The notes under the pieces are model-generated. The model did no database searches, was not told the DNA's origin, and saw only the letters and a list, made by a program, of their open reading frames with translations. A program made the translations under genes and the position numbers. Of a DNA stretch of 64,000 nucleotides, positions 28,304 to 61,554 are shown piece by piece. The stretch spans positions 416,001-480,000 of the forward strand of contig CAWBMP010000005.1 of NCBI GenBank assembly GCA_963790025.1, written 5' to 3'. This DNA is from Nitrospirota bacterium (GTDB lineage Bacteria > Nitrospirota > Thermodesulfovibrionia > Thermodesulfovibrionales > Dissulfurispiraceae). The stretch's first letter is position 1, and every line of letters begins with the position of its first letter.

Positions 28304-28519
<216 letters not shown>

Positions 28520-28877
28520 TTTTGTCACCTCCTTCCAAAATTCTTTGCATTCTTCTCAGCCAAACGTCTCAACCAAAAATTTACCAAAAATTGGGGTATT
28601 GCTATACCATCTCAATTATTAACATATACGCAGGTTCTTGTCAAGAACTAAAAAATCAGGAGTTCCCCCAATTTTTTTACGCGCTTGTCCGGAATAGCAA
28701 TTCCTGAGCATATTTTTTCCGGCTATCGCCGGGGTCTAATATGACAAGCGTATCTTTGCCAATTAAAGGGGCACTTTCCTCAGCAGATTCTTTTGTAGCC
28801 CTTCCCCTAACCCTCTCCGCATTGACTGCCGCGACAGTCGCTCCTGCTAAAAAATGGGCCCAACTGTTTTGATAATG

Positions 28878-30655: not shown

Positions 30656-32269
30656 CTAGTTATACCACTCGATGCGATTGCGGGGCACATACCAGTGTAT
30701 GAAATCGTAGTCTATTCCTATGGGTGCCTTTACTACGCCCTTGAAGCGTTTGTGCAGTACAAGAAGGGCATCGGGGACGTAGAGGAATGCATACGGTTGT
30801 TCTTCGGCGAGTATCTCGTGTATTCTGTGATAAATCTTTTTCCTTTTTTCCAAGGTAAAGGTGCGCCTGCCTGCTAGCAGTAACCGGTCAACTTCCTCAT
30901 TTTTGTAAGAGATGAAATTGAATTCCCCTTCTTTTGTTTTCGAGGAATGCCAAATGTCGTAGATATCAGGGTCTCTAGAGAGGGCCCAGCCCATAATAAT
31001 GGCTTCGAAACGTTTTTTATCGATAAATTCGTGCAGCATCGCCTGCCACTCGAGTACTTTTATGTGTAATTCTATACCGACCCGATTTAGTTGTTCTTTC
31101 AGTATCTGGGCAGTCTTGAGTCTCGCATCGTTACCCTGGGTTACAAGAACGGTGAAAGAAAATGTCCTGCCGTCTTTCTCTATCAGTCCCGATTTGTTCA
31201 TCCTCCATCCAGCTTCTGCAAGCAGTTCACGTGCCATGGCTGGGTTGTAGTCGTAATCCCTGACAGCCGGATTGTAGGCCCATGATTCAGGGGGGAAGGG
31301 GCCGGTACAGGGAGTTCCGTATCCTAATAGCACCCCGGCTATAATCTCTTTTTTGTTGATTGCATGAGCTATTGCCTGCCTTACACGCACGTCCTTGAAA
31401 AGTGGGTCGAGCAGATTGTATCCCATATATGTGTATCCGAAGGAGGGATACCTGAACTTCTGAAAAAACCTATTGAAGAATGCATTGTTTACCTGAAGTT
31501 TATATTGAGGCGGAGTTACACCCATGAAATCGATGCCGCCGAATTTCAGCTCTAAAAACATCGTCGAAGAATCGGGAATTACGCGAAACAGCACTCTGTC
31601 GATATTCGGTCTTCCTTCGAAGTAATGATCGAAGGCAGTGAGTATGATTTTTTGTCCGGTCACCCATTCGGCAAGCCGGTATGGGCCGTTCCCGGTTGGG
31701 TTCCGGTTTATTTCAGGAGACGAAAGGTCCTTTCCCTCAAGAAGGTGCTTTGGCACGATCCCCATGCCCCAGGATTCTAATGCAGGGGCAAAAGGTTCCT
31801 TGTAAATTACTTTGACCGTATATTTGTCGGGAGCCTCAACGCTCTTAACGGGTCCGTAGATGCTGCTATACGGTGTCGGCACTGATGGATCGATAACTTT
31901 ATTGTAGGTAAAAACAACGTCATCAGCGGTGAGTTCCGTTCCATCATGCCACTTGATACCCTTGTGGAGATGAAAGATTATCTGCAGACCGTCAGGACTT
32001 ACTTCCCATGACTCGGCAAGGTCACCGGTCAGCCTGATATTTTTGTCATACTTTACCAGTCCGTGATAGATAAATCCGCTTATTTCTCCAGATGCGCTGT
32101 CCGAGGCAAGGAATGGAAGAAGCCTTTTGGCATCGGCACCCAAGCCCATTGTAATGGCATTCGGGTATTTGATCTCGGGCTCGCGGGAACAAGAGGAAAA
32201 AAAAGTTAATAGTGACAGTGTCAGCAGAACAAAATTATTTCTTAAAATTCCTGTACCGGTCTTTTTCAT
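30656..32269 (-). CDS. ABC peptide-binding lipoprotein (SBP family 5, AppA/OppA-like)
   Basis: Lipobox FSSC, GDLAESWEVS, WHDG..LTADDV, GNGPY, DVRVRQAI; no cognate permeases adjacent. Confidence 0.92.
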   Translation of the reverse strand: MKKTGTGILRNNFVLLTLSLLTFFSSCSREPEIKYPNAITMGLGADAKRLLPFLASDSASGEISGFIYHGLVKYDKNIRLTGDLAESWEVSPDGLQIIFHLHKGIKWHDGTELTADDVVFTYNKVIDPSVPTPYSSIYGPVKSVEAPDKYTVKVIYKEPFAPALESWGMGIVPKHLLEGKDLSSPEINRNPTGNGPYRLAEWVTGQKIILTAFDHYFEGRPNIDRVLFRVIPDSSTMFLELKFGGIDFMGVTPPQYKLQVNNAFFNRFFQKFRYPSFGYTYMGYNLLDPLFKDVRVRQAIAHAINKKEIIAGVLLGYGTPCTGPFPPESWAYNPAVRDYDYNPAMARELLAEAGWRMNKSGLIEKDGRTFSFTVLVTQGNDARLKTAQILKEQLNRVGIELHIKVLEWQAMLHEFIDKKRFEAIIMGWALSRDPDIYDIWHSSKTKEGEFNFISYKNEEVDRLLLAGRRTFTLEKRKKIYHRIHEILAEEQPYAFLYVPDALLVLHKRFKGVVKAPIGIDYDFIHWYVPRNRIEWYN

Positions 32270-32300
32270 CCCTGACACTTAGCACTGCAACCGACACTTA
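32204..32300. repeat. Degenerate AGTGTCAG/CTGACACT inverted element spanning the secG stop and the lipoprotein signal peptide
   Basis: agtgtcag 32217-32224 versus ctgacact 32272-32279 and ccgacact 32291-32298. Confidence 0.5.
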
Positions 32301-37444: not shown

Positions 37445-37548
37445 AATGAGTGGGTGAATAAGAAGGTGAGTATATGAGTGAATGGGTGAATAGAAGTTTT
37501 TTATTACTGTTTTACTCATATACTCTTTTACCCATTTACTCATATACT
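37445..37548. repeat. Octamer-based inverted repeat between the convergent porin and kinase genes
   Basis: gtgagtat atgagtga atgggtga ... tactcata tactcttt tacccatt tactcata; includes the kinase stop codon. Confidence 0.75.
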
Positions 37549-38928
37549 TTTTGATCGAGTAAATATTACTTTAACAGAGGTCCCCTTGCCTTCCTTCGGC
37601 TCATTAATAAAAATACCGGCATTATGCTTTATGGCAATTTCCCTGGCTATTGCCAGTCCGAGTCCGCTTCCCTCAATATCGTTTCGCGGACCGCGCCTCA
37701 GGATACGATAGAACCGCTCAAAAACCCGTTTTTTTTCGTTTTCCGGGATTCCCGGTCCGTTATCCTCAACTATTAAACTGATGTTGTCCTGCACTTCTAC
37801 TTTTAACGTCACAACGCTGCCGAAAGGGCTGTAACGGATTGCATTGTCCACCAAGTTGTCAATCATCATTTTCAGCCGCAGGATGTCTCCCCGTATCATA
37901 GCTTTTTCGCCTGAGCAGCTAAAACCAAGGTCAATATTCTTTCTCAATGCCTCAGGGACCCATTCGTTGGCAATTTCGCGGGAAAAAATAATCAGATCCA
38001 ACTCCTTCAGGTCATTAACCGCATCAGAGTTAGGCTCCACCTGCGCCAGCGCCAGCATCTGCTTAATAAGGCGGGAGGAACGATTGACGCTTATGCTGAT
38101 CTGCTGCAGTGAATGCCTTATGTGTTCCGGATCGGCTTCCTGCAAAGCCACATCGAGTTGGGTCTTTAACCCCGTAAGGGGAGTACGCAATTGGTGGGCT
38201 GCATCGTTGATAAAACGCCGTTGCATTTGCAGGGCGTCATCCAACCGCTGTAAAAGATCGTTGACAGCCTGGGCCACCGGAAGCATTTCCAGAGGCGTAT
38301 GGCTTTCCTCGATAGGGGTCAAATCACGATGAGAGCGTGCGGCTATCTCGTCGCGCATGCGATGCAGCGGCTCTAATCCCGTCCGCACGCCCAACCAAAC
38401 TATTGTCGCAGCTATCAGGATCAGCACAAGTTGGGGAAGCACCATTGCAGTGATGATCTCTCTCTGCAGAATAGCACGCTTATTCAGGGTTTCGGCTATT
38501 TGCACCAGTACAGGTTGCCCCGCAATAGCGAAATAGCGTGAGGCGATGCGCAGTTTATGCCCCTGCATAGAACCGTAGTGCATAATGGGTGGGCCGAATG
38601 TGACCGGAGCTTCAGGCATGAGGAGGCCGGGCTCTCCTGCTATCAGCTTTCCACTGAGGTCCGAAACCTTGAAATAAATCTTATCGTATTCATCTGTCAG
38701 GAGCATCTCCACGGCAGCTCGTGGAAGGTCCAGTCTTATTTGACTGCCGACGACTGTTATCTGTTTCGATATGTCGCCGGTGAAATCAGCCAGGGCGCGA
38801 TCATAGGCGATATTCGAGAACTTTGTTGCCAGGTGATAAGCTATTGCCGCCCCTATCAGCCACAAAAACAGCAGCGGCAGGAGCAGCCAAATAAGAAGTT
38901 TGCGACGCAGTGACGTAGGCTTATGCAT
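37540..38928 (-). CDS. Sensor histidine kinase (QseC/TctE-like)
   Basis: Two TM segments, HAMP, AAHQLRTPL, NLVDNAIRYS, DNGPGI, GSGLGL. Confidence 0.93.
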   Translation of the reverse strand: MHKPTSLRRKLLIWLLLPLLFLWLIGAAIAYHLATKFSNIAYDRALADFTGDISKQITVVGSQIRLDLPRAAVEMLLTDEYDKIYFKVSDLSGKLIAGEPGLLMPEAPVTFGPPIMHYGSMQGHKLRIASRYFAIAGQPVLVQIAETLNKRAILQREIITAMVLPQLVLILIAATIVWLGVRTGLEPLHRMRDEIAARSHRDLTPIEESHTPLEMLPVAQAVNDLLQRLDDALQMQRRFINDAAHQLRTPLTGLKTQLDVALQEADPEHIRHSLQQISISVNRSSRLIKQMLALAQVEPNSDAVNDLKELDLIIFSREIANEWVPEALRKNIDLGFSCSGEKAMIRGDILRLKMMIDNLVDNAIRYSPFGSVVTLKVEVQDNISLIVEDNGPGIPENEKKRVFERFYRILRRGPRNDIEGSGLGLAIAREIAIKHNAGIFINEPKEGKGTSVKVIFTRSKSI

Positions 38929-39727: not shown

Positions 39728-40939
39728 ATGACGGCTCAAAAAAATATTCAAAGTACTCTGCGGTTTCTCTTTTTCGCAGGCTCACTTTTCTTGATTGTCC
39801 TGTCAGGGACGGGTTGCCGGAGTAAAGCTGCAGAGGGCAATTCGCCGTCCACGCAGGAATTGACCCAGACGTCGAATGCTATCGACTCCGCAACAGTGAC
39901 ACTAAACGATGCTCAGCTTAAATCGGTCAAGATCGAGCCGGTAGGCCGGCATATCTTCACGGTCCAGCGGGAGGCAGTCGGCAATATCGATTTCAACCAG
40001 GACAGGTCGGTCCAGGTCTATCCGCCGAATCAGGGGAAGATCATCGAGCTGTTCGCCAACCTCGGCGATAATGTGGCCAAAGGGAAGAAGCTATACACAA
40101 TTAACAGCCCCGATCTCGCACAAGTCGAGTCGGCCTTGATTGCTGCGACAGGCGTCTTTGACCTCACCAACCATGTATTAGAGCGCGCCAGGAAGCTCTA
40201 TGAGGTGCAGGGAATTGCCCAGAAAGATCTGGAACAGGCAATCTCCGACCAGCAGACCGCAGAGGGTGCGCTAAAAGCGGCCCGCCACGCCGTCAGTATC
40301 TTCGGGAAAGACGAAACCGAGATCGATCAAATCGTGGCAAAGCGCCAAATCGACCCGGCAATGGTTGTGCTCAGCCCTATAACAGGCCGCATAACGGCCC
40401 GCAATGCTGCGCCCGGACTTTTGGTGCAACCCGGTACTCCACCTGCCCCGTACCTGGTTACCGATATCTCGACCATGTGGATGGTTGCGTTCGTTGCCGA
40501 AAGCGACAGTCCGCTTTTTCATGCAGGACAGGCAGTCAAAGTCAAGCTCATGGCCTTTCCCGGCAGGGTGTTCGAGGGAAGGATTTCTACCGTGGGAGCG
40601 ACTGTAGACCCCGCTACCCATCGGCTTATGGTGCGGTCGGCAATTCGTGATCCGAAGCACGAACTGCGGCCGGGCATGTTTGCAACTTTTACCATCAGCA
40701 CTGGTGGAGCGGTACGGTATATCGCAGTCCCGGCGGGTGGCGTGGTCCTCGAAAGCGACGGCACGATGACTGCCTGGGTGACAACCGATCGACATCACTT
40801 CGTGCAAAGGCCGCTCAAGCTTGGCTTGCAAGAGGATGGCTGGTATCAGATTGTCGAAGGTCTGCGTCCCGGTGAACTGGTTGTTACCGAGGGCGGCATA
40901 TTCCTCAGCAACTTGCTGCAAGCGCCGCCGACCGATTAG
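39728..40939 (+). CDS. Heavy-metal RND periplasmic adaptor (CzcB-like), system 1
   Basis: Lipoprotein signal (GTGC), SPITG, VDPATH, LRPGMFA. Confidence 0.9.
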   Translation: MTAQKNIQSTLRFLFFAGSLFLIVLSGTGCRSKAAEGNSPSTQELTQTSNAIDSATVTLNDAQLKSVKIEPVGRHIFTVQREAVGNIDFNQDRSVQVYPPNQGKIIELFANLGDNVAKGKKLYTINSPDLAQVESALIAATGVFDLTNHVLERARKLYEVQGIAQKDLEQAISDQQTAEGALKAARHAVSIFGKDETEIDQIVAKRQIDPAMVVLSPITGRITARNAAPGLLVQPGTPPAPYLVTDISTMWMVAFVAESDSPLFHAGQAVKVKLMAFPGRVFEGRISTVGATVDPATHRLMVRSAIRDPKHELRPGMFATFTISTGGAVRYIAVPAGGVVLESDGTMTAWVTTDRHHFVQRPLKLGLQEDGWYQIVEGLRPGELVVTEGGIFLSNLLQAPPTD

Positions 40940-40941: not shown

Positions 40942-43900
40942 ATGTTCAGGTCTCTCATAGCATTTTGTCTGAGCCGCCGTGCTATTATTGTTGTCGGCCT
41001 GCTGATGTTTTCAGGCGCCGCGTTTCTCGCTTTTCAAAGGCTCAACATCGAGGCCTATCCGAATCCATCGCCGGTTATCCTGGAGATTACCGCTCAAGCG
41101 CCGGGCCTCTCGGCCGAAGAGATGGAGCGTTACTACACGCGCCCGATTGAAATTGGTCTCTACACGACCCCCGGCATTTCTGTCATCCGGTCAACTTCGT
41201 TTTATGGTCTGTCTTTTGTCCGGGTCGTTTTCAAATATGGGGTGGATTATCACTTCGCCTACAGCCAGGCGGCCATAGCGTTGCAGCAAAATGTCAGCCT
41301 TCCCGGCAATCTGGTGCCCACGATTCAACAGAACAGCGGGACCGGGGAAATCTTTCGTTATCAGGTGGTCGGCCCGAAGCATTTCGGGATAACCAATCTG
41401 CGCACTGTCCAGGATTGGATCGTTGCGCGCCGGCTGTTGACCATTCCGGGTATAGTTGCCGTCAACAGTTGGGGCGGCCCGACAAAGCAGTTCGAGGTCG
41501 AGGTCGATCCGCACAAACTGGAAGCCTACAACGCTACAGTGCCCCAAATCATTACCGCGCTGGGCAACGCCAACATCAACGTGGGCGGACGGGAAATCCG
41601 GATCGGCCAGCAATCCATCAATATCCGCGGCGTCGGACTGATCGACGACGGCGGCAATGATGATTTGACCCAGGGTTGCAAGGTCGATGACATCGAAAAC
41701 GTTGTCCTGACCCAGGCTAACGGCGTTCCGGTGCTGGTAAAGGATGTCGCGAAGGTGCATGTAGGCTATAGGCCGAGGCTCGGAATCTGGGGCCACGACA
41801 TGACAGACGACGCGGTGGCGTCGATCGTGGTGATGAGCCGCACGGAACATGCTCACGACATGCTGCCGAAGGTCAAAGCCGAAATCGCCAGGATGAACGG
41901 CGACGGAAGCCTGCCGCCCGGAGTCAAGCTGGTTCCCTTTTACGATCGCGGGTCTTTGATCAGCGTCACTACCCACACCGTTTTGCACAACCTGATTTTC
42001 GGATGCCTTCTTGTCTTTCTGATCCAATGGATTTTCCTCGGCAATCTCCGCAGCGCAATCATTGTCGGGATGAATATTCCGTTTGCGCTGTTCTTTGCCG
42101 TCATTCTCCTTGTGCTTCAAGGCGAAAGCGCTAACCTGCTCTCGGTCGGCGCAGTTGATTTCGGCATTATCGTGGATTCAGCAGTAATACTGGTCGAGAA
42201 TATATTCCGGAATTTCCAGGGGGAAACGGAAGAAAGACAGCAACTCTCTGGAGCGACCTTGCGCAGGGGCATTTTGGGAACGGACCCGACAGGCCGGCAT
42301 GCATTGTCGGCCACGGTGGACGGACCGGTTGCGCCTGATCTTCATCAGCGCCCTGCAGGTGGACAAGGCGGTTTTCTTTTCGGCCTTAATCACAGTGGCC
42401 GCTTTCGTGCCGCTCTTCACCATGCAGGGAGTCGAGGGGCGATATTCGGCCCAATGGCGCGCACATATGGCTACGCGCTGGCCGGCGCCCTGATCGCAAC
42501 GTTCACAGTCACGCCTGTGCTTGCGTCCTTTCTGCTTCCCGAGGACGTGAAGGAAACTGAGACACTCGTTGTCCGCACACTGCACCGTCTTTACGATCCG
42601 GCGCTGCGTTTCGCGCTCGCCCGCCGTACGATCATGGTGGTGATCGGAATTGTTTTTATTCTGGGGGCCGGATTGCTTGGCTCTGCGGCTTGGAAGCGAA
42701 TTTCTCCCGCAACTCGAAGAAGGCAATTTCTGGATTCGCGCTTCCATGCCGATGACGCTCTCGCTGACAGACGGCGAGGCGGCGACGAGAAAAATGCGGA
42801 TGATTCTCCTGCAATATCCGGAGGTAGTCACCGTGACCTCCCAGCATGGCCGGCCCGACGACGGCAGCGATGCGTCGCCGTTTTCCAACGTCGAGTTATT
42901 CGCAGCCCTCAAGCCGCCTGACCAATGGCCGCAGGGTGTGACCAAGGAGAAACTGACCGAGCAGAGTCAACGCCGAGTTTGAGCGCGAGCTGCCGGGAGT
43001 TAACTTCAACTTCTCCCAATACATCCAGGATAACATCGAGGAGGCCATTTCAGGCGTTAAAGGCGGTCAATTCGGTGAAGATCGTCGGCCCCAATCTCGA
43101 AACCCTGACGAAGCTGGCCGCGCAAGTCCGGGACCAAATGAGCCAGGTCCGCGGCGTTGCCGACCTCGGAATCTTTCCGGTCCTTGGGCAGCCGAATCTG
43201 AACATCAAGGTAGATCGTACTAAAGCTGCACGGTATGGCCTCAATACCGGCGACATCAACTCGGTCATTCAGGCAGCGCTGGGCGGAGCTGTCGCTACGA
43301 CGGTTTTGGAGGGCGATCGCCAGTTCGAGCTGGCTGTCCGGTTCCCGGCCGAAAGCCGGGACAACATCGAAAAAATAAGCAATGTCAAGGTGGCCTATCA
43401 AACGGGCAGCGGCCCCAACGCCTACATTCCCCTGAGTGAACTGGCGACGATCGCAATGGATACGGGGGCAGCCTGGATTTATCACGAGAGCGTGCAGCGC
43501 TTCATTCCCGTCAAGTTCAGTGTTCGCGGGCGCGATTTGGCCGGCACCGTTGCCGAAGCGCAGCAGCGCATCGCAAAGAATTTGAAACTTCCGAACGGCT
43601 ATCGTCTGGTCTGGGCCGGCGAGTACGGGGAACTTCAGGCAGCCAGGAAGCGTCTGGCGATCATAGTGCCAATCAGTCTTGTGCTTATTCTGGGGCTGCT
43701 CTACGCCTTGTTCAGTTCCCTGCTGGAGAGCCTTCTGGCATTGTCCGGGATTCCCTTCGCGATCGCCGGCGGAGTTTTGGCTCTCTATGTTTCCGGTCTC
43801 AATTTCAGCATATCCGCTGCCGTCGGATTTGTCTCGCTCTTTGGTGTGTCCGTCATGAACGGCATTCTGATCATTACCTATTACAATCAGGCAAGGCTTC

Positions 43901-44145
43901 GCGGAGACATGCCCGTGGACGCTATGTTCCACGCCGCATTGACCCGTATGCGGCCGCTGCTGATGACGAGCCTCTCAGCCTGCATAGGGCTGTTACCGGC
44001 AGCAATTTCCAGGGGCATCGGCAGCGAGGTGCAGCGCCCGCTCGCTACTGTAATCGTCGGCGGTATGTTTATCGGCCCGATCATGCTGCTCGTTGTTGTG
44101 CCTGCGCTCAAAATGGTGTTCCTGGGAAAAACAAGTGAAAAGTGA
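40942..44145 (+). pseudogene. CzcA/CusA-family heavy-metal RND transporter, system 1, interrupted by at least 5 frameshifts (possibly sequence errors)
   Basis: AVDFGIIVDSAVILVEN and RMRPLLMT; CzcA homology hops frames at ~42310, 42440, 42680, 42967 and 43066. Confidence 0.8.
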
Positions 44146-44263
44146 GAGGTAAAAAGTGAAAAGTGAAAACAAAAAAAATAAAAAGCCGGAACTGGTAAGT
44201 GATCAGTCTAATTCTTTGCTTGTCAATTGTTGCTTTTCACTTTTAACTTTTAACTTCTTACTT
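44133..44263. repeat. Heptamer-based inverted repeat (AAGTGAA)n...(TTTTMAC)n
   Basis: 5 left units (44133-44167) and 4 right units (44234-44261). Confidence 0.8.
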
Positions 44264-45700
44264 GTCTTCGGTTGCGCCTTGGGTCCCGACTTCCGCAGGC
44301 CGACCTTACCTGCCATCGACGGTTATACGCCTCAGCCGCTGACTGCGACATCATCTGCTGCCGACCTGGCAAGCGGCGAGAGACAGCGATTTGCGATGGG
44401 TACGGACATTCCGCAACAGTGGTGGGCATTGTTTAAGTCGCCGGAGCTCAACGCGCTGGTCGAAAAATCGCTCAAGGCCAACCCGACGATAGACGCAGCG
44501 AAGGCAGCCTTGCGTCAGGCCCGGGAGAACGTCTATGCCCAGCAGGGCTATTACTATCCTTCAGTCCAGGCGGGTGCTTCAGTCAGCCGTGCAAAGGACC
44601 CGGGCACTATTGCGCCGGTATTGAGTTCAGGGGAAGAACCCTACAATCTCCGTACTGCACAGGTGAGTGTGGGCTTCACACCTGACGTGTTCGGCGGCAA
44701 CCGGCGGCAGGTGGAATCCCTGAATGCCCAGGCCGATTTTCAACGCTTCCAGCTCGAGGCGACTTATCTTGCGCTGACTTCGAACGTGGTTGCCGCGGCC
44801 ATCCAGGAAGCTTCATTGCGCTCTCAGATTTCCGCTACTCTCGACATCATCAAGGTCGAAACTGTGATGGTAGATCAGCTGCGCCGACAGTTCGATCTCG
44901 GGTATGTTGCCGGGCTCGATGTGGCTGTGCAGGAAGCGGCCCTTGCCCAGGTGCAGCAAACCTTGCCGCTACTGCAGAAGCAACTGGCACAAACTCGCGA
45001 TTTGCTTGCGGCCCTTGCCGGCACTTTCCCGAACCAGGAACTCGATGAAAAGTTCGAGCTCGAGGCGCTTAGCCTTCCCCAGGAACTTCCCGTCAGCCTT
45101 CCCTCCAGGCTGGTGGAGCAAAGGCCTGACGTGCGCGCTGCCGAGGAGCAAATGCATGCTGCCAGCGCCCAGGTCGGAGTTGCAGTCGCCGCTATGCTGC
45201 CGAATATCACCCTGAGCGCCAATTTGGGCAGCACCGCCACTATTATTAATAAATTGTTTACGCCGGGCACCGGCTTCTGGGGCCTGGCCGCCGATATCAC
45301 TCAACCTGTCTTCGAGGGGGGCACGTTGCTGCACAGGAAACGGGCCGCTGAAGCGGGCCTGGATCAGGCTGAGGCGCAGTACCGCAGCACGGTCATCGCC
45401 GCCTTCCAAAACGTGGCGGACACGCTGCATGCGCTCCAATCCGATGCCGATGCCCTGAAAGCTGCCGAAGCTTTCGAACAGGCCACGAGGCGGAGCCTCG
45501 ACCTTGCACGCCGGCAATTCGAACTTGGCTACGTTAATTACTTATCATTTCTTTCCGCCGAGCAGACTTACCAGCAGGCAGTGATCAATACAGTACAGGC
45601 CCAGGCCAACCGTTATGCAGACACTGCAGCTTTATTTATGGCGCTCGGCGGCGGCTGGTGGAACCGGTCCGATAAACCCGGCGCGGAATCAAGGCAATAA
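44156..45700 (+). CDS. RND outer-membrane lipoprotein (NodT/OprM family)
   Basis: Lipobox VFGC-ALGPDF, WWALF, RPDVRAAE, ALGGGW. Confidence 0.92.
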   Translation: MKSENKKNKKPELVSDQSNSLLVNCCFSLLTFNFLLVFGCALGPDFRRPTLPAIDGYTPQPLTATSSAADLASGERQRFAMGTDIPQQWWALFKSPELNALVEKSLKANPTIDAAKAALRQARENVYAQQGYYYPSVQAGASVSRAKDPGTIAPVLSSGEEPYNLRTAQVSVGFTPDVFGGNRRQVESLNAQADFQRFQLEATYLALTSNVVAAAIQEASLRSQISATLDIIKVETVMVDQLRRQFDLGYVAGLDVAVQEAALAQVQQTLPLLQKQLAQTRDLLAALAGTFPNQELDEKFELEALSLPQELPVSLPSRLVEQRPDVRAAEEQMHAASAQVGVAVAAMLPNITLSANLGSTATIINKLFTPGTGFWGLAADITQPVFEGGTLLHRKRAAEAGLDQAEAQYRSTVIAAFQNVADTLHALQSDADALKAAEAFEQATRRSLDLARRQFELGYVNYLSFLSAEQTYQQAVINTVQAQANRYADTAALFMALGGGWWNRSDKPGAESRQ

Positions 45701-45897: not shown

Positions 45898-47145
45898 ATG
45901 TTCCGTTCAATTAAATATATATCTATTCTCATAGTGTTATCCCTGATGACCAACGTTTGCCTATCGCTGCCGGTTGCTGCCGAGGATGAGGTTAGCCTTG
46001 ATCAGGCGGTAGAACAATTTTATAAGAACAATTTTGACGTGCTTATAAGCAAGTATGAGATCGACAAGGCATATGGGGATTATATAGGGTCACGCCTGCG
46101 TCCAAACCCGAATTTGAGCTTTAACTACACATTTATACAGCTTAAGGATTTCCCGCATGCAGGCGATAATACGCAAACCGTTACAAGAATCGACCAGTTG
46201 ATCGAGCTCGGTGGTAAAAGGGGATTGAGGACCGGTGCGGCATCCGAAACCCTGGAATCTTCAAAATTGTCTCAAAAAGATACTGTGAGGACGCTGCTCA
46301 TAGGTTTTTACACAGTTTTCTTCAATCTTAATACGGATATGCTCAACGTGGATGAGGCGCGGGAAATGCTGGAGAGATTCGACAAGATATTTGCGGTCGG
46401 CGAGAAGCGCTATCAGGCCGGTTTTTTAACACTGCTCGATTATACCAAGCTGAAGCTGGGAAGAATCGATTTCGAAAACAGCCTTGCCGGCCTTGAAACC
46501 CAGTTCAGGAACGATACTGAACAGTTCAGCTTGCTTCTTGGAAGCGCAGGACCCATGAAACCAGCCCTTCAGGTCCGGGAAGATTTCAATACCTATACGG
46601 AACAAGACCTCCTCAAGAGTGCTTATCAATACCGGTACGATCTCCTCTCGGTTGAGAAGCAGTTGAAGGCATCGGAATTTGCGGGGCAGCTTGCGAAAGC
46701 CAAGGCAGTGCCGGACATTACAGTGGGGGCAGAATTCGAAACAATAACGGCAAGGAACACGCCGGGAGTCGGCTTCGGCGTCAGTTTACCTCTTCCGCTA
46801 TTCAACAGGAACCAGGGCGAGATAGCCAGGAGGCAGGCAGAATATAGTCAGCTTGAATTACAGAAGGACAAAGTGAAGCGGCAGATTGTTTCCGATGTCC
46901 GTCAGGCCCTGAACAATTATTCCGGATCGATAAATATCTTTGAAGCCTTCAAGACGAGAAAAAATGACATGAAGGAGTTGATGTCAAAGAGCGAAAAGGC
47001 CTTTTCCCTGGGCGGGATTACCGTGCTCGATCTGCTTGATACCGAGAAGACATACAGAGATTTCATGGTAAAGTACAACCAGTCACTTGTTCAGGTCAAT
47101 CTTAACAGGCAACTCTTAAAGGTTTATACAGGAGAGATGAAGTGA
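45898..47145 (+). CDS. TolC/CzcC family outer-membrane factor, system 2
   Basis: RPNPNLS, IELGGKR, PLPLFNRNQGEI. Confidence 0.9.
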   Translation: MFRSIKYISILIVLSLMTNVCLSLPVAAEDEVSLDQAVEQFYKNNFDVLISKYEIDKAYGDYIGSRLRPNPNLSFNYTFIQLKDFPHAGDNTQTVTRIDQLIELGGKRGLRTGAASETLESSKLSQKDTVRTLLIGFYTVFFNLNTDMLNVDEAREMLERFDKIFAVGEKRYQAGFLTLLDYTKLKLGRIDFENSLAGLETQFRNDTEQFSLLLGSAGPMKPALQVREDFNTYTEQDLLKSAYQYRYDLLSVEKQLKASEFAGQLAKAKAVPDITVGAEFETITARNTPGVGFGVSLPLPLFNRNQGEIARRQAEYSQLELQKDKVKRQIVSDVRQALNNYSGSINIFEAFKTRKNDMKELMSKSEKAFSLGGITVLDLLDTEKTYRDFMVKYNQSLVQVNLNRQLLKVYTGEMK

Positions 47146-48191
47146 AAAAAACGGCGCTTATGCTGCTGATTTTAATGCTGTCCGGCTTAATTATGTTCGG
47201 CTGTTCCGGGGACGATCCTTACAAAAAGGAAACAAAGGAAGCATTGCATACCTATAAGGTGACGTTCCAGAAAGTGCAATCTTTTATAGAGGCGACGGGC
47301 TCAGTCCAGGCCGATGTGGAGGGAGGAGCAAAAATAGTTTCTCCGTTGCAGGGAACGGTGGAAAAAATCCTCGTAAAGATTGGTGACAGGGTAAAAAAGG
47401 GTACCCCGCTCATAGCATTAAGAAGTTCCGACGTGAGCGATGCGCATGCGAGTTACCTTTCGGCAATGGCCGAGCTGAGTCAGGCGGACCGGGTATATAA
47501 ATTGAATAAGCAGCTATTTGAAATCGGCGCAGTCACGAAGAACGATCTGCTTAACAGCGAGGCGAATTATGAACAGGCGAGGGCACTGGCGGAAGGCCTG
47601 AAAAAGAAGCTCGACATATACGGCGTATCCGGCGATACTATTCATGACACTCTCATCATCAGGGCGCCTATCGATGGGTCGGTTGCTGACCTCCAGGCCC
47701 ATATCGGCGACAGGTTCGACACAAGCACGCCGCTGATTACAATTGCCGACCCCGGCAAGACAGTGGTTGTTGCTAATATTTATGACACGGATGCAATGAA
47801 GATCCAGAAGGGCAGGGAGGTCGCCTTCTATGCCGATATCTTTCCGGATACCGTCTTTAAAGGTGTCATCTCGTATATAAGCGATGTCGAGGACATGGAC
47901 TCAAAGACTATCAAGACATATATCAAAAATGTAAGCGGCAAGGGCCTCTTCAGGCAGAATATGTTTTTAAAGATCAGGATACTCGCAGGGGAAAAGCTGC
48001 TCCCGATGGTCCCGAAAACAGCCCTTATCTTCAAGGACGGGAAGTTCTATGTGAACAGGAAAAGGGGTGAAAAGTTTGAGCTTCTTGAGGTCAAACCTGC
48101 GGGCAGCACTACGGACAAGCTGATGGCCGTTGAAGGACTGAGCGAGGGAGACGAGATCGCTTACTCGGCAATAGACCTGGAGAAGCCATGA
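47142..48191 (+). CDS. RND periplasmic adaptor (CzcB-like), system 2
   Basis: Lipobox FGC, GDRVKKG, RAPIDG; GTGA overlap with the upstream gene. Confidence 0.9.
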   Translation: MKKTALMLLILMLSGLIMFGCSGDDPYKKETKEALHTYKVTFQKVQSFIEATGSVQADVEGGAKIVSPLQGTVEKILVKIGDRVKKGTPLIALRSSDVSDAHASYLSAMAELSQADRVYKLNKQLFEIGAVTKNDLLNSEANYEQARALAEGLKKKLDIYGVSGDTIHDTLIIRAPIDGSVADLQAHIGDRFDTSTPLITIADPGKTVVVANIYDTDAMKIQKGREVAFYADIFPDTVFKGVISYISDVEDMDSKTIKTYIKNVSGKGLFRQNMFLKIRILAGEKLLPMVPKTALIFKDGKFYVNRKRGEKFELLEVKPAGSTTDKLMAVEGLSEGDEIAYSAIDLEKP

Positions 48192-51100
48192 GGAAATGGG
48201 TTGTTTTTGTAAGTGAACACAGCCTGCTTTTCCTGCTTGTAATAGCATCGGCGTTTGTTCTTTCCCTTTTTTTTGTGAAGAACCTTAATGTGGAGGCGTT
48301 TCCGGATCCCGCCCCACCCATTGTCGAAATCGTCACTATTTATGAAGGCAGGTCGGCGGAAGAAGTCGAAAGGCAGATAACCATCCAGCTCGAGGTCGCA
48401 CTTGCAGGGATGGAGGGTCTCGAAAAGATCAACACCATATCACTCTATGGACTTTCGGATATCAAATGCAAATTCTCTTACGGGACAGATTTCAGGAAAG
48501 CGAAACAGGAGGCCCTAAACAGGCTCGCGACCGTGACACTGCCGGATAATATATCTCCATCGATTATACCCAATCCTTTTGGAGAGATTATGAGATACAG
48601 GGTAACAGGCTCAAATAATCTTATGGAGCTCAGGACAATCCAGGACTGGACGATTGCAAGATTTTTGAAGACGGCTGAGGGAGTCGAAGACGTTTCGAGT
48701 TACGGCGGTTATATAAAGACCTATACTGTTACGGTAGCTCCCGAAAGTCTCATTAAATACGGTCTGACACTTTCCCAGGTCACAGATTCCTTATCGAAGT
48801 CCAACCTGAATGTCGGCGGCAGGGTCGTCGAAATGGGCGACCAGTATTATATGGTAAGGGGGTTGGGACTGATTAATAGTCTGAGTGACATAGAGAATGC
48901 GCTTGTTGTATCCAAGAATGGAAAGCCTGTCCTTATAAAAAATGTAGCACAGGTTGAAATCGGCAGCGTGCCGAGAACGGGTATAACAGGATTGAATAAT
49001 AATGATGAAATTGTTTGGGGAAATGTTATCCTGCGAAAAGATGCCAAGAGCATACCTTCCATAAAAGCGGTGCATGAAAGAATAAAGGAACTGAACGGGC
49101 GTATCCTGCCCAAGGGGATTAAAGTGGTACCCTTTTATGAAAGGTGGGACCTTATAATAACTGTTGTGACGAAGGTCGCAGAGACAGCTTCTGTAGGAAT
49201 CACGCTGGTAGCCGTCGCGCTGTTTATATTCCTCGGGAACATAAGGGTGGCAATTATAACTGCCATTATAATACCGGTTTCTCTTATTATAACCCTTGCA
49301 GTTATGGCCCTCAGGGGAGAATCAGCCAACCTGCTGTCCATCAGCGCTATAGATTTCGGCATCATTGCGGACATCCCGCTCATTTTGATAGAAGATTATT
49401 TCAGACTTACAAAGAAACGGGGTCCCGGTTTCAGTCCCATGATAAAGGCCTCCGAGGAGGTAGGGAGACCTATACTTTTTTCGGTGATAGTTATCCTTCT
49501 TGCCTTTATCCCTATCTTCATGATGAAGGGGGCCGAAGCCCAGATATTTAACCCTATGGCAAAGACCTATCTTTATGCTATATCCTTCACTTTGGTGCTC
49601 ACGTTTTCCTATCTCATTGCGGCAAGAAGACGTTTTCTCAGGCACGCGGAAGACAGGGAATTCAGGTTCATTTCAGTCCTGAGAGACAAGTATGTGGAAC
49701 TGATTAAATTGTTGCTCAGGAATTCTAAAAGCGTCCTTTTGATCATTTCCATTGTGGTGATGATCGGATTGGTACTGGGTATGAAGACTGTGGGCAGCCA
49801 GTTTCTACCGAAGATGGACGAGGGGAATGTGTATGCCAGGATAACCTTTCCCTATTCAATATCTCTGAACAAGACATACGAAAACGCCAAAAAGGCGAGG
49901 GACCTCTTTCTGAAACTTCCCGAGGTCCAGAGTGTCGAGTTTCAGGTTGGAAGGCCTGAGGACGGAACAGACCCTACCGGACCCTTCAATTCCGAATACT
50001 ATATCGGACTGAAACCATACGGCTCATGGAAAAGCGGCCTGACCAAGGAGAAGTTCGAAGACCGGACGAGAGAAAAGTTGAAAAAGCTTTTTCCGAATGC
50101 CGATATCAACATGTCGCAATATATAGAGGACAATCTTGAGGAAGTAATGTCCGGGGTGAAGGGCGAAAACTCTGTAAAGATATTTGGCGATGACCTTGCG
50201 GAGCTCGACAATATTGCAAAAGGCGTTGCCGAGGGGCTGGAAAAAACCGCAGGCTCAGAGGATATCGGAATATTACGGGAACTTGGACAGCCCAATCTTT
50301 TGATACAGGTCAGCAGGGAAAATGCGTCTGCCCTCGGGTTGACGGTGCAGGACATACTCGATACCGTTTCTGCCGCACTTGGCGGGAAAGAAGTCAGCAG
50401 GATAATAGAAGGAGACAGGAATTTTTCACTCATGGTAAGCCTCCCGTCTTTTTACAAGAAAGAGCCTGACAAGATAAACAGCCTGCCCATTGTATTGCCT
50501 AACGGAGGCCTTGTCGCGCTCTCAAGGATCGCAAATATACGCTATGATACCGGGGCATCATTTATTTACCGGGAAGATTTCAGGAGATACATACCGGTAA
50601 AGTTCTCTGTTACATCCAAAGACCTCGGAGGGACCGTTGAGCGCGCACAGAGGGCAGTTGCTCATATAAAACTGCCTGAAGGTTATTACATGGAATGGAG
50701 CGGGATGTTCAACGAAATGAAGGAGTCATTCAAGAGGTTCTATGTCTCGATCCCCATCGCCCTCTTCCTTATTCTTGCAGTCCTCTACCTGCTTTACAGG
50801 TCTGTGCGGAATGTGCTCATTATCATGGTTGCTCCGCTTTTTGCAGTATTGGCCGGTCTGATGAGCCTGCTTGTAACAGGTGAATCCATGAGTGTCTCAT
50901 CTATCGTCGGCTTCATATCGATTATTGGCGTTTCGGTGCTTAATGCGTCCATACTCATAGGCCATTTCATCAAGCTTGTTCTTAATGGTATGGAAAAAGA
51001 AGAAGCCATACTTCAAGCTGTCTCCGACAAATTCAGGCCGATACTTATGGCCGGTTTTGTCGCTTCACTCGGTCTCCTGCCTGCCTCGCTCTCCCACGGG

Positions 51101-51226
51101 GTCGGAAGTCAGGTTCAGAAACCATTGGCTATCGTAGTGGTAGGCGGAATGTTTATAGGTACCGCGATGATCCTTTCGATCCTGCCGCTGCTGCTGCGGT
51201 TCGTGCAGACCGAGGAATACCGGTAA
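48188..51226 (+). CDS. CzcA/CusA-family RND transporter, system 2
   Basis: VEAFPD, AEEVERQIT, AIDFGIIAD, RPILM, GSQVQKPLA. Confidence 0.93.
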   Translation: MRKWVVFVSEHSLLFLLVIASAFVLSLFFVKNLNVEAFPDPAPPIVEIVTIYEGRSAEEVERQITIQLEVALAGMEGLEKINTISLYGLSDIKCKFSYGTDFRKAKQEALNRLATVTLPDNISPSIIPNPFGEIMRYRVTGSNNLMELRTIQDWTIARFLKTAEGVEDVSSYGGYIKTYTVTVAPESLIKYGLTLSQVTDSLSKSNLNVGGRVVEMGDQYYMVRGLGLINSLSDIENALVVSKNGKPVLIKNVAQVEIGSVPRTGITGLNNNDEIVWGNVILRKDAKSIPSIKAVHERIKELNGRILPKGIKVVPFYERWDLIITVVTKVAETASVGITLVAVALFIFLGNIRVAIITAIIIPVSLIITLAVMALRGESANLLSISAIDFGIIADIPLILIEDYFRLTKKRGPGFSPMIKASEEVGRPILFSVIVILLAFIPIFMMKGAEAQIFNPMAKTYLYAISFTLVLTFSYLIAARRRFLRHAEDREFRFISVLRDKYVELIKLLLRNSKSVLLIISIVVMIGLVLGMKTVGSQFLPKMDEGNVYARITFPYSISLNKTYENAKKARDLFLKLPEVQSVEFQVGRPEDGTDPTGPFNSEYYIGLKPYGSWKSGLTKEKFEDRTREKLKKLFPNADINMSQYIEDNLEEVMSGVKGENSVKIFGDDLAELDNIAKGVAEGLEKTAGSEDIGILRELGQPNLLIQVSRENASALGLTVQDILDTVSAALGGKEVSRIIEGDRNFSLMVSLPSFYKKEPDKINSLPIVLPNGGLVALSRIANIRYDTGASFIYREDFRRYIPVKFSVTSKDLGGTVERAQRAVAHIKLPEGYYMEWSGMFNEMKESFKRFYVSIPIALFLILAVLYLLYRSVRNVLIIMVAPLFAVLAGLMSLLVTGESMSVSSIVGFISIIGVSVLNASILIGHFIKLVLNGMEKEEAILQAVSDKFRPILMAGFVASLGLLPASLSHGVGSQVQKPLAIVVVGGMFIGTAMILSILPLLLRFVQTEEYR

Positions 51227-53978: not shown

Positions 53979-54346
53979 TGTTCAGGTTTATTAGAACAAT
54001 TCTTCGTTTGTTTGTGGCAGCGCTGATTATCTTTTTTGCCTTCTCCATGTGGAAGGGCGGCGGGGAATTCAGGTGGTTCGGGGAGAAACTGGGTGAGAAG
54101 GCCGACGAGATCAAGTTAAAAAAAGATGAAGCCGTTGAAAAGATAAAAAAATTGACAGGCATGGGAGTCCCCGAAAAGTCACAGACTTTTAATAAACATC
54201 ATGTCAAAACGGATGAAACTTCGAAGAAAAAGACAAAAGAGACCGACCCTGAAGTTGTCGGGGGAGGCAGTGATGAAAATAAGCCGTCAGAAAGTTTATG
54301 GGACACTATATGGAAAAAGATGAAAGCGCTGATGCAAAAGGCTTAA
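53975..54346 (+). CDS. Hypothetical membrane-anchored protein inserted between lolE and lolD
   Basis: ATGA overlap; N-terminal TM; Lys/Glu-rich. Confidence 0.7.
   Translation: MMFRFIRTILRLFVAALIIFFAFSMWKGGGEFRWFGEKLGEKADEIKLKKDEAVEKIKKLTGMGVPEKSQTFNKHHVKTDETSKKKTKETDPEVVGGGSDENKPSESLWDTIWKKMKALMQKA
54163..54190 (-). repeat. In-frame palindromic element, copy 2 (reverse orientation)
   Basis: Reverse complement AAAAGTCTGTGACTTTTCGGGGACTCCC. Confidence 0.65.
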
Positions 54347-54457
54347 CCACAGAGTTCACAGAGGAAAGAATCAGAGCAGCGAGAGGAATAAATATCATTA
54401 AAAAGAATAAGCTTCTCTGTGAACTCTTTTTTCTGAAACTCAGTGTTCTCTGTGGTT
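54345..54457. repeat. MITE-like nonamer palindrome AACCACAGAG...CTCTGTGGTT
   Basis: Perfect 10 bp terminal inverted repeats with internal CACAGAG/CTCTGTG units. Confidence 0.8.
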
Positions 54458-54496
54458 CATATTTTTTTGCAAAAGACACAAAGGAGTAGCTGCCGG

Positions 54497-58840: not shown

Positions 58841-60733
58841 ATTAAAATTTTATTGCCTGACGGCTCGGAAAAAGTAGTTGAGAAGTCCGAGCTGCAAAAA
58901 CATATCGAAGCATCTCGCGCTTTCGGAATTAGGGTGAATGGAGAGTTCAGGGATTTGGCATCTCTCGATACCTTGCCTCCAGAAGCTGTTGTCGAACCAA
59001 TCACCTTTAATTCGAAAGAAGGAAAGGACATATACCGCCACAGCGCATCTCATATCATGGCCCATGCCGTAAAGGAATTGTTCCCAGGGGTCAAATTCGC
59101 CATAGGTCCCTCCATAGAAGAAGGTTTTTATTACGACCTCGAAAGTGCGGAACACTTTGCCCCCGAGGACCTCGAAAAGATTGAAAAAAAGATGAAGGAG
59201 ATTATCAAGCGGAACAACCCCTTTGTCAGAAAGGAGGTTGCGAGGGATGAAGCTATAGAGCTTTTCAGGAAAATGGATGAGCCATACAAGGTCGAGCTGC
59301 TTCAGGAGATCCCGGATGCTGCGGTCTCTTTGTATGAAGAAGGAGGGTTTGTTGACCTCTGCAGAGGGCCGCACCTGCCGAAGACCGGAAGAGTGAAGGC
59401 ATTCAAACTGTTGAGTATTGCGGGGGCTTACTGGCGCGGCAACGAAAAGAACAAAATGCTCCAGAGGATATACGGAACTGCTTTTGACACGAAGGAGGAG
59501 CTCAAGTCCTATCTCGATTTCCTTGAAGAAGTGAAGAAGCGGGACCACCGGAAGCTCGGTAAAGAGCTCGATCTTTTCAGCATAAGCGACGATATAGGTC
59601 CTGGCCTCATACTTTGGCACCCTAATGGCGCAATTATAAGAAAAACGATAGAGGACTTCTGGAGGGACGAGCATGTCAAGGCCGATTATAAACTCCTCTT
59701 TTCTCCCCACATTGCCCGGTTGCATTTATGGCAGGAGAGCGGTCACTGGGACTTTTACAGGGAAAATATGTACTCCCCCATGGAGATCGAAGAGATTGCC
59801 TATGAGTTGAAGCCGATGAATTGTCCTTTTCACATTGCTATCTATAAAAGTATGCTCAGGAGTTACCGGAATTTGCCGCTGCGATATGCGGAACTCGGCA
59901 CGGTATACCGCTACGAAAGGTCAGGAACGCTCCACGGTCTTATGCGGGTCAGGGGCTTCACGCAGGATGACGCGCATATTTTCTGCAGAGAGGACCAGAT
60001 CGAGGAGGAAATTGTAAATGTTCTCGATCTAACGCTCTTTGTTCTGAAGACCTTCGGGTTCGACTCATATGACATATATCTTTCTACCAGACCCGAAAAA
60101 TATGTGGGGGCGGTTGAAAACTGGGAGAGCGCAACGAATGCCCTGAAGCACGCGCTTGAGAAAAAAGGGTTGCCGTATGCCGTGGACCCGGGCGAGGGGG
60201 TTTTCTATGGCCCCAAGATAGATATAAAAATAAAGGACTCGCTCAACAGATCGTGGCAGTGCAGCACTATACAGGTTGATTTTAATCTTCCCGAACGGTT
60301 CGATACCGTATATCGCGGGACCGACGGCAAAGAACAAAGGCCGATAATGATCCACCGTGCATTGATGGGATCACTGGAGCGTTTTTTCGGCATCCTTATC
60401 GAACACCACGCCGGAATTTTCCCGCTTTGGCTTTCTCCTGTGCAGGTGTCGGTTTTGACAATTGCGGAAAGACATGAAGCCTATGCCGGGCAGGTATACG
60501 GGGAACTTAAAGGCGTGGGCATAAGGGCTGAACTGAATGCCGATAATGAGAAAATAGGGTACAAGATCCGTGAGGCCACGATGAGAAAAGTGTCGTATTT
60601 GATTATAATAGGGGATAAGGAAGTTGAGGACCGGACAATTACGGTGAGAAAACGGAACGGCGATAATATCGGGCCATTTACAACCGGAGAGTTTATAGCC
60701 ATAATAGAAGAAGAAGTAAAAAGTAAAAAGTAA
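58841..60733 (+). CDS. thrS: Threonyl-tRNA synthetase (probable ATT start)
   Basis: IKILLPDGS, HSASH, DLCRGPH, RDHRKLG, KPMNCP, STIQVDF, HRALMGS; SD GGAGG 7 nt before in-frame ATT 58841. Confidence 0.97.
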   Translation: MKILLPDGSEKVVEKSELQKHIEASRAFGIRVNGEFRDLASLDTLPPEAVVEPITFNSKEGKDIYRHSASHIMAHAVKELFPGVKFAIGPSIEEGFYYDLESAEHFAPEDLEKIEKKMKEIIKRNNPFVRKEVARDEAIELFRKMDEPYKVELLQEIPDAAVSLYEEGGFVDLCRGPHLPKTGRVKAFKLLSIAGAYWRGNEKNKMLQRIYGTAFDTKEELKSYLDFLEEVKKRDHRKLGKELDLFSISDDIGPGLILWHPNGAIIRKTIEDFWRDEHVKADYKLLFSPHIARLHLWQESGHWDFYRENMYSPMEIEEIAYELKPMNCPFHIAIYKSMLRSYRNLPLRYAELGTVYRYERSGTLHGLMRVRGFTQDDAHIFCREDQIEEEIVNVLDLTLFVLKTFGFDSYDIYLSTRPEKYVGAVENWESATNALKHALEKKGLPYAVDPGEGVFYGPKIDIKIKDSLNRSWQCSTIQVDFNLPERFDTVYRGTDGKEQRPIMIHRALMGSLERFFGILIEHHAGIFPLWLSPVQVSVLTIAERHEAYAGQVYGELKGVGIRAELNADNEKIGYKIREATMRKVSYLIIIGDKEVEDRTITVRKRNGDNIGPFTTGEFIAIIEEEVKSKK

Positions 60734-60802: not shown

Positions 60803-60823
60803 AATTCTTTAGGAGGTGAGAAC

Positions 60824-61550: not shown

Positions 61551-61554
61551 AGCA

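Follow-up and report, generated by a model that had tools for sequence, protein, structure and literature searches.

A tandem-heptamer hairpin at a czcA-nodT junction whose two arms are probably read as a lipoprotein signal peptide in a Nitrospirota bacterium

Cyanobacterial short tandemly repeated repetitive (STRR) sequences consist of tandem 7-bp repeats that form hairpins between hupS and hupL; their function is given as unknown, with roles in transcript stability or translational coupling proposed (PMC2670836). TAACTGA heptamers, present in Beggiatoaceae, cyanobacteria and Bacteroidetes, form arrays of direct repeats directly upstream of start codons, where the forward repeats place stops in all three frames, often overlap the stop of the upstream gene and occasionally encode residues at protein ends (MacGregor 2015, PMC4679880). 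RU-2 (YPAL), described at Y. pestis YPO1552, is an enterobacterial repeat resembling miniature inverted-repeat transposable elements (MITEs), 168 bp long, fixed in sequence and multi-copy; YPO1552 homologues in other genera carry unrelated signal peptides (Delihas 2007, PMC2759123). In Neisseria Opa proteins, pyrimidine-rich CTCTT coding repeats within the leader peptide mediate phase variation (PMC3960869), and repetitive extragenic palindromic sequences and bacterial interspersed mosaic elements (REP/BIME) are G+C-rich palindromes of 20-40 bp with conserved GTAG or CGTC ends and many copies (PMC3733652). Here we describe a hairpin of tandem heptamers in a 64,000-nt stretch of DNA from a Nitrospirota bacterium of the Dissulfurispiraceae (GenBank assembly GCA_963790025.1, contig CAWBMP010000005.1, positions 416,001 to 480,000 of the forward strand), referred to as a whole as the window. 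The element lies between two metal-efflux genes, a czcA-like pump gene and a gene for a NodT-family lipoprotein, and its two arms appear to be translated as the signal peptide of the latter.

The element is an imperfect palindrome of 141 bp at window 44128-44268, in which an (AAGTGAA)n arm and a (CTTTTAA)n arm flank a 42-nt spacer:

44128-44184, plus strand: 5' purine-rich arm, with (AAGTGAA)n at 44133-44169 followed by an A-rich tail
44185-44226, plus strand: spacer with a small internal stem, encoding the polar linker PELVSDQSNSLLVN
44227-44268, plus strand: 3' pyrimidine-rich arm, with (CTTTTAA)n at 44233-44256, encoding the hydrophobic (h-) region CCFSLLTFNFLLVF

Tandem Repeats Finder assigned period 7 to both arrays, with 5.3 copies and 80% matches on the left and 3.4 copies and 94% matches on the right. 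Two pairs of inverted repeats describe the palindrome, one with 40-nt arms that are 80% complementary (44137-44176 and 44227-44266) and one with 36-nt arms that are 81% complementary (44128-44163 and 44233-44268). Each arm holds at most two perfect consecutive units, and an A8 run (44171-44178) lies within the translated region. Folded as RNA, 44120-44280 reaches -46 kcal/mol compared with -28.9 +/- 3.5 kcal/mol for 200 dinucleotide shuffles, none of which equalled it (z -4.87). The 13-mer AAGTGAAAAGTGA, with up to 2 mismatches allowed, occurs 13 times in the window against 2.0 expected and a shuffle maximum of 6. With a GC content of 29.8%, the hairpin stands apart from both the czc cluster (56.6%) and the rest of the window (47.5%). 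It does not score as an intrinsic terminator, a G+C-rich stem with a T run behind it; a consensus scan of 43800-44600 returned a single terminator site, at 44410-44426, and none at the hairpin, where a promoter scan likewise found nothing. Across the whole window Rfam gave no match at the gathering score, and 44121-44274 drew only sub-threshold matches to plant microRNA-precursor models, which are generic long hairpins. A blastn search of plasmids returned no match.

Within the hairpin lie the last czcA codons and their TGA, a GAGAGG sequence, the nodT GTG and 37 of the 39 residues ahead of the lipobox Cys. The signals run as follows:

44143-44145, plus strand: czcA stop TGA, inside a repeat unit
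44144-44149, plus strand: Shine-Dalgarno-like GAGAGG, 6 nt ahead of the GTG, overlapping the czcA stop and paired in the predicted stem
44150-44152, plus strand: TAA closing the nodT frame just upstream of the GTG
44156-44158, plus strand: GTG start of the NodT-family gene; in the predicted stem two of the three bases pair
44156-45700, plus strand: NodT-family outer-membrane factor lipoprotein gene, 514 aa (TIGR01845; Pfam OEP)
44261-44275, plus strand: lipobox L-V-F-G-C, with L, V and F from the arm; homology with relatives resumes at G-C

The last four czcA codons (T-S-E-K) and the stop fall in the 5' arm. The 514-aa reading frame opens with (V/M)KSENKKNKK, and the segment up to the lipobox, which we call the head, reads (M)KSENKKNKKPELVSDQSNSLLVNCCFSLLTFNFLLVFGC before the protein continues with ALGPDFRRP. 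Residues 27-36, FSLLTFNFLL (44234-44263), run into V-F-G-C, whose Cys codon is TGC at 44273-44275. The 5' arm is read as the Lys-rich n-region, and the 3' arm as the Phe/Leu-rich h-region together with the first lipobox residues. A preliminary description of this locus had reported the czcA TGA, the GTG and the readings of the two arms, and had proposed that upstream stop, start codon and lipoprotein signal peptide all come from the palindrome; all of this holds on checking as far as the lipobox, and the ribosome site belongs to the same package. Codons with a middle A specify hydrophilic residues and their complements, with a middle T, hydrophobic ones; this property of the genetic code would explain why the two arms give the characters of an n- and an h-region. 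The head, with net positive charge near its N-terminus, a 19-residue hydrophobic stretch and L-V-F-G-C, would on these features act as a lipoprotein signal peptide.

Translation from a point downstream of the repeat, which would have spoken against the preliminary description, finds no start codon to use: no in-frame ATG, GTG or TTG occurs from the 3' arm to the Cys. The sole alternative in-frame start, TTG 44216 in the spacer, is without a ribosome site, and a protein begun there would still take its h-region from the 3' arm. Only the frame that is used is open across the head. The homologues P0003 and P0004 likewise start with V-K-(S/G).

The mature protein belongs to the NodT family. TIGR01845 matches with 427 bits against a cut-off of 210, aligning residues 35-500 with profile positions 5-460 of 460, and Pfam OEP matches in two stretches. 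The lipobox L-V-F-G-C40 and the following ALGPDFRRP align with ..SGC and AVGPDFHRP of the homologues, so that the family's xxGPDF(H/R)RP motif is present. The closest homologues come from sources named Nitrospirota, Thermodesulfovibrionales and Dissulfurispiraceae. The head differs from that of close homologues, whose mature parts are 82-84% identical and whose ordinary signal peptides of about 22 residues are unrelated to it. Among the 115 of 120 listed homologues with a recognisable lipobox anchor, heads have a median length of 22 residues and typically read MSAKYF..ALLSGC. After the Cys, identity to the window protein is 83% for P0005 and 82% for P0008; before it, 4 of 22 aligned residues match, and the P0005 head, the sole plain head scored against shuffles, reaches a score of 18 that 611 of 1000 shuffles equal. 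Similarity thus starts only at Gly-Cys, as the preliminary description had anticipated, and homologues free of the repeat have different N-termini.

The same boundary appears in the DNA. At the syntenic czcA-nodT junction of the Nitrospirota locus L009, which has neither hairpin nor structure (z +0.43), czcA ends with ..LFLGKKGETEEMIV and a stop, and 14 nt later nodT begins with MKVVCSKFFSLIAAALAAVALLSGC. In a four-way DNA alignment (A1), homology ends at czcA ..TTCCTGGG and resumes at GGTTGC, which encodes Gly-Cys; the hairpin therefore occupies exactly the stretch unconstrained by either protein, which begins where czcA conservation ends (..F-L-G) and extends as far as Gly-Cys in the nodT lipobox. 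The junction measures 145 nt in the window and roughly 120 nt in L009. When eight related Nitrospirota loci (88,908 nt) were surveyed, seven had no hairpin and one, L002, did. Its equivalent czcA-nodT junction (L002 5940-6082) carries a different palindrome, (GAAGTTGA)n/(CAACTTCT)n (z -3.74), with the czcA stop in the 5' arm and the nodT ATG overlapping the czcA end. Just upstream of this palindrome, AAAAAGTGAAAAGAGTGAGG looks like a remnant of a window-type AAGTGAA arm.

A second gene in the window independently shows the same layout. Within window 4854-5222, one (GGTAAAAG)n hairpin (5059-5222) encodes the stop of a DUF2905 gene and the start and signal peptide of a SpoIID/LytB-like gene, and folds at -54.5 kcal/mol (z -6.07). 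Its 5' arm contains the last DUF2905 codons, the TAA at 5076-5078 and, after 15 nt, the SpoIID-like ATG 5094 with the n-region. The head reads MAEGKRLKVKKSLNEKIKN-LFLLCSLPFYLLSFTLSLSSVSFA up to the predicted cleavage site and QP beyond it; the 5' arm encodes its Lys-rich part and the 3' arm its hydrophobic part. The last hairpin codon is that of Ala43, directly ahead of the predicted cleavage between SFA and Q. Here too only the used frame is open; it stayed open in 467 of 5000 skew-preserving shuffles, and in only 3-9% of shuffles overall. The proposal that an A/G-rich arm yields a basic n-region and its complement a hydrophobic h-region agrees with this second case. Since the SpoIID-like gene has native GC (46%), the effect of a hairpin head is not tied to horizontally acquired genes.

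Homologues of the SpoIID-like protein extend the pattern. The closest ones without the repeat have plain heads, such as MRPIYLTFFLVSLILCLAAHPSLSIA with presumed cleavage ahead of EP, while many others have long heads with a 7-residue period whose residues are different in each, for example P0149 (NAKCKMQNAKYK...ILIFAFCILHFAF), P0166, P0182 and P0152 (D. thermophila). A 7-residue period is what a translated 7-nt repeat gives. Over the homologues P0124-P0242, a median of 40 residues precedes the conserved motif, and the repeat is different in nearly every homologue. Counting a head as periodic if a comparison at lag 7 gave 5 or more identities within 14 positions, we found 24 of 116 heads, from homologues that share kinship, compared with 1-10 of 116 at lags 4-6 and 8-10, 0 of 580 equal-length windows from the mature proteins and 10 of 580 shuffled heads. 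Some heads classed as plain also show a 7-residue period, as in P0131 (LTLFLAALVLCLAAL). P0191 has a long N-terminal extension with LLRCARNDSEK...LLRYARNDD, which looks as if another kind of repeated DNA element had been translated, probably through an error of annotation. A back-translation test of inverted complementarity between n- and h-regions proved powerless, with degenerate codon sets saturating the score and the positives P0002 and P0123 going undetected, and was discarded.

In all, the window holds eight hairpins of 7-8-nt repeats, each folding beyond its shuffles (z -2.8 to -6.6):

5059-5222, plus strand: unit GGTAAAAG, at the DUF2905/SpoIID-like junction, z -6.07
23705-23815, no strand assigned: unit AGGTAAAGAT, between convergent genes, z -3.31
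37445-37555, no strand assigned: unit GAGTGAATGG-like, between convergent genes for an OprB-like porin and a sensor kinase (Pfam), z -5.61
44128-44268: unit AAGTGAA, at the czcA-nodT junction, z -4.87
54330-54475, plus strand: unit CACAGAGTT-like, ending 22 nt ahead of ATG 54497 of a gene for a cytoplasmic ABC ATPase (Pfam), z -4.25
60700-60820, plus strand: unit AAGTAAA, at the thrS/infC junction, z -6.62
61540-61655, plus strand: unit CGTTCAG / CGTACAG, between rpmI and rplT, z -2.83
62075-62205, plus strand: unit GCAGTAA, between rplT and pheS, ending about 8 nt ahead of the pheS ATG 62204, z -6.04

The repeat unit differs at each of the eight, and a unit related to that of 44128-44268 recurs only at 60714-60802. 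In all of them purines dominate the 5' arm and pyrimidines the 3' arm, which for a palindrome is true on both strands. We take AAGTGAA, AAGTAAA, GGTAAAAG and the other window units not to be the named STRR units. Ahead of cytoplasmic genes stand four hairpins (at ABC ATPase, infC, rplT and pheS), and each of them ends before the start codon. Within the row thrS-infC-rpmI-rplT-pheS (60700-62205), three of the four junctions (thrS/infC, rpmI/rplT and rplT/pheS) carry a hairpin, each with its own unit. The 5' arm at 60700-60820 includes the thrS stop TAA (60731-60733), and this hairpin ends just ahead of the likely infC start, ATA 60824.

Several smaller features of the window were also noted. 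The infC start is probably the non-canonical ATA 60824-60826, 5 nt after a GGAGGTG ribosome site; with it the IF3_N profile matches from position 1, whereas the listed GTG 60869 allows a match only from position 11. The 3' end (3165-3191) of the open reading frame (ORF) 2604-3191 runs into two copies of the purine-rich repeat ACAGGCAAAGGT, and the 3' end of queH (4808-4851) contains AAAGACAGACAAAGGCAGAGGTAAAG with a small AGGTAAAG/CTTTACCT stem; both may be small or nascent versions of the window hairpins. At 28330-28435, a GC-rich tandem repeat of 6, 12 or 18 nt, (GCTGGT/GCAGGA)n, encodes a Gly-Ala repeat in one frame (ORF 28314-28622). A crude hydrophobicity screen of 59 ORFs served for spotting candidates only, and no rate was computed from it. 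A third possible case in the window, the SBP_bac_5 lipoprotein gene (30656-32278, minus strand), whose start is surrounded by a weak inverted repeat, was rejected, with z +0.41 and 129 of 200 shuffles folding as well.

The NodT head can be followed among its relatives independently of the protein behind it. P0003, P0004 and P0069 have open heads homologous to the window's (VKSENKK...FYFLL(V/F)FGC), all ending F-G-C; head scores of 94 (P0001-P0003), 86 (P0001-P0069) and 112 (P0003-P0069) exceed shuffle maxima of 65, 46 and 80, and none of 1000 shuffles reaches them. The mature parts of the three are 65-84% identical, with P0069 only 65% identical to the others, and P0069 sits in a separate, strongly supported clade with P0073, P0117, P0121, P0071, P0074 and P0086. 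Grouping P0001, P0003 and P0004 as one clade is not rejected in the approximately unbiased (AU) test and is 37.6 log-likelihood (lnL) units better than the quick free tree (p-AU 0.89), but adding P0069 to that clade is rejected (delta lnL 327, p-AU 1e-4). On the quick tree we had counted three separate origins of KSENK heads; that count was dropped after the AU test, and two placements are claimed, clade I and P0069. A second head type, EVEKLxSWE...LVLM(A/T)GC, is common to P0007 (the L002 protein, clade I) and P0073 (clade II), with a score of 65 against a shuffle maximum of 47, and joining these two as one clade is also rejected (delta lnL 237, p-AU 1e-5). Two head types are thus each found in two distinct NodT clades, and heads must differ in history from the mature parts. 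The simplest reading would be recombination, in either direction, at the junction between paralogous or incoming operons; the conserved 3' end of czcA and the nodT sequence just after the Cys could provide the homology.

Compared with the systems introduced above, the window elements resemble STRR sequences most in structure, being tandem 7-nt units in inverted arrays that form hairpins at gene junctions. They differ in their host, a Nitrospirota bacterium rather than a cyanobacterium, in their AT-rich units, different at every locus, and in having arms translated as a signal peptide, for which the accessible sections of the STRR paper contain no counterpart. With RU-2 they have in common a head unrelated to the signal peptides of homologues. 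RU-2 is, however, one fixed sequence while each window hairpin has its own unit; in the window the n-region, h-region, upstream stop, ribosome site and start all come from two arms, and the pattern recurs across many orthologues. Opa genes likewise have pyrimidine-rich tandem repeats within the signal-peptide coding region, but these units are pentameric and without an inverted partner arm, and their function is phase variation, which seems very improbable for the nodT hairpin. TAACTGA arrays share the position by start codons, the overlap with the upstream stop and partial translation; they consist of a single unit, almost always direct (one indirect case is reported), and the accessible text reports no hairpin or signal-peptide role. 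At 141 bp and 29.8% GC, with locus-specific units, the nodT element is no REP/BIME. Nor does it show the copy number of MITEs such as RU-1, RU-2 or Correia-like elements, at least within the 64-kb window, where the only related unit is that at 60714-60802. Palindromic elements inserted in frame in protein genes of Rickettsia were reportedly described by Ogata et al. in 2000 and are a further instance of palindromic repeats tolerated within coding sequence; they are fixed in sequence and are not known to form signal peptides. Our literature search found no description of heptamer hairpins in Nitrospirota, none, Delihas 2007 aside, in which the arms of a hairpin code for the two halves of a signal peptide, and no report of a two-arm division into n- and h-region, of a whole junction package (stop, ribosome site and start) or of lineage-wide recurrence together with head swapping.

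The operon around the hairpin bears on how these observations are to be read. Upstream of nodT lie two genes:

39728-40939: membrane-fusion protein gene, upstream of the pump gene
40942-44145, plus strand: czcA-like gene for a resistance-nodulation-division (RND) pump, with Pfam ACR_tran on both pieces

In czcA the reading frame is lost at about 42685 and regained at about 43060, where AAAGGCGGTC has an additional G, and the annotated frame meets a TGA at 42919. A tblastn search with the L002 CzcA protein located the homologous reading in another frame at 42689-42964, 89% identical to L002 CzcA. The frameshifts either are genuine, marking a pseudogene or decay, or reflect two indel errors in the assembly. 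The GC-rich czc cluster is followed directly, at 45898-51226, by a second efflux system of native GC (47-49%); its TolC-like outer-membrane protein, membrane-fusion lipoprotein and RND pump each have an ordinary N-terminus.

The account we favour, and regard as probable though well short of certain, is that the hairpin comes from a lineage-specific, STRR-like population and that its arms are translated as the nodT head in place of an ordinary signal peptide. Such a population would consist of AT-rich inverted arrays of 7-8-nt tandem repeats, and the head would stand where close relatives have an ordinary signal peptide of about 22 residues. Such an arrangement would be acceptable to the cell, and put to use, since positive charge and then hydrophobicity are all that a signal peptide requires; the hairpins ahead of cytoplasmic genes would stop short of the start codon. 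Because the window head type also occurs on a distant NodT clade, the head most likely reached the GC-rich, probably acquired czc operon by recombination with the junction of a resident paralogue; transposition seems a less likely route. Because ribosome site and GTG are both base-paired in the stem, translation of nodT is probably coupled to that of czcA and relies on ribosomes finishing at the czcA stop 10 nt upstream; the 15-nt gap at the DUF2905/SpoIID-like junction suggests a similar geometry there.

Other explanations share some of this evidence. The hairpin might have grown in situ: slippage and template switching would have enlarged the native junction, starting from the complementarity of Lys (AAR) codons in the n-region with Phe and Leu (YTT) codons in the h-region. 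It fills exactly the unconstrained spacer at a length similar to that of a hairpin-free junction, units vary between loci and between orthologous loci (the window and L002; the SpoIID heads), and L002 keeps AAAAAGTGAAAAGAGTGAGG of the AAGTGAA type (type A) upstream of a different palindrome, all of which would fit. Type A heads are, however, homologous between NodT clades that are about 65% identical, while many closer relatives have plain heads, which points to recombination rather than independent growth at czcA-nodT; we consider growth in situ rather unlikely as the origin of this head. The preliminary description had suggested ready-made signal-peptide cassettes that re-head horizontally acquired genes; taken as a mobile element, such a cassette would be a MITE-type transposable palindrome that inserts upstream of genes of any family and brings stop, start and signal peptide. 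The separate histories of head and mature part and the foreign composition of the czc cluster would suit such an element. As a fixed-sequence mobile element it lacks support, because each of the eight hairpins has its own unit, with a similar one only at 60714-60802, and because a query with residues 1-40 returned 5 candidates (proteins of 282-900 aa sharing 5-residue words) of which only the NodT protein itself scored. In addition, plasmids gave no match, the hairpin replaces the junction rather than adding to it, and shared heads are seen among NodT genes only, as homologous recombination would have it. A mobile cassette is thus improbable. What is left of the re-heading idea is partly supported: the GC contrast of the czc cluster and the two head types each on two clades are compatible with recombination at the junction and separate histories of head and body, but the second hairpin heads a gene of native GC, so that re-heading would not be specific to acquired genes.

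An accident in a decaying operon, with a fortuitously open frame and NodT not exported or not expressed, is in our judgement equally improbable. It would draw on the two frameshifts and internal TGA of czcA, on the sequestration of ribosome site and start, on the frame being open in about 13% of shuffles and on the atypical geometry of the head. But the mature region of nodT is full length at 427 bits to TIGR01845, three homologues with mature parts 65-84% identical retain an open homologous head ending F-G-C, a second window gene has the same layout with a frame open in only 3-9% of shuffles, periodic heads are common among SpoIID homologues, and the czcA frameshifts may be assembly errors. 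Phase variation, finally, would have slippage in the 7-nt units or the A8 run shift the frame and switch NodT on and off, as CTCTT does in Opa. In its favour, the unit length is not divisible by three, the coding head contains both repeats and an A8 tract, and Opa provides a precedent (PMC3960869); yet neither arm has more than two perfect consecutive units, and like hairpins occupy the housekeeping thrS-infC-rpmI-rplT-pheS junctions and the spaces between convergent genes, so that we hold this explanation to be very improbable.

The favoured account, in which translated arms of an STRR-like hairpin serve as the NodT signal peptide, has several points to contend with. The open frame is only mildly improbable by chance, arising in 643 of 5000 skew-preserving and 132 of 1000 neighbour-preserving shuffles (about 13%). 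With Cys at position 40, a long n-region containing acidic residues and Phe at -2, the head has a geometry that we take to be atypical by general rules for lipoprotein signal peptides. Translation ought to suffer from a predicted stem of -46 kcal/mol that covers the start site, and genuine czcA frameshifts would mean that the operon may be in decay and that no full-length czcA could drive the coupling. As to the comparative evidence, the palindromes behind the heads of P0003, P0004, P0069 and P0073 are deduced from protein sequence alone; 7-residue periodicity is not in excess among the NodT heads as a set (3 of 115); and the 24 periodic SpoIID heads of 116, being from kindred homologues, are not independent events. 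The P0007-P0073 pair was chosen after the tree had been seen, and the quick free tree is suboptimal. The precedent of Delihas 2007 moreover limits the newness of the core idea.

A wider reading, which we put forward as no better than speculative, is that the heptamer-array hairpins of Thermodesulfovibrionia act as a lineage-wide generator and exchanger of signal peptides. The arrays would spread into every unconstrained junction and be translated wherever the downstream protein is exported, since two complementary arms of themselves yield an n- and an h-region; turnover would be fast, giving a different unit in nearly every orthologue, and paralogues would exchange heads by recombination. If this is true, newly acquired genes would gain both a host-type head and hairpin-enforced translational coupling. 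Signal peptides are known to evolve fast, but the route by which one replaces another is rarely visible; the czcA-nodT locus shows a concrete one, in which a structured repeat takes over a gene junction and one arm is read as the charged half of an export signal, the complementary arm as the hydrophobic half. Should the same be true across the genome, it would link otherwise unexplained heptamer hairpins to protein targeting and translational coupling, would provide a natural test of the minimal sequence information needed for a Sec or lipoprotein signal, and would caution those annotating such genomes against dismissing long low-complexity N-termini as misplaced start codons, since they are probably genuine.

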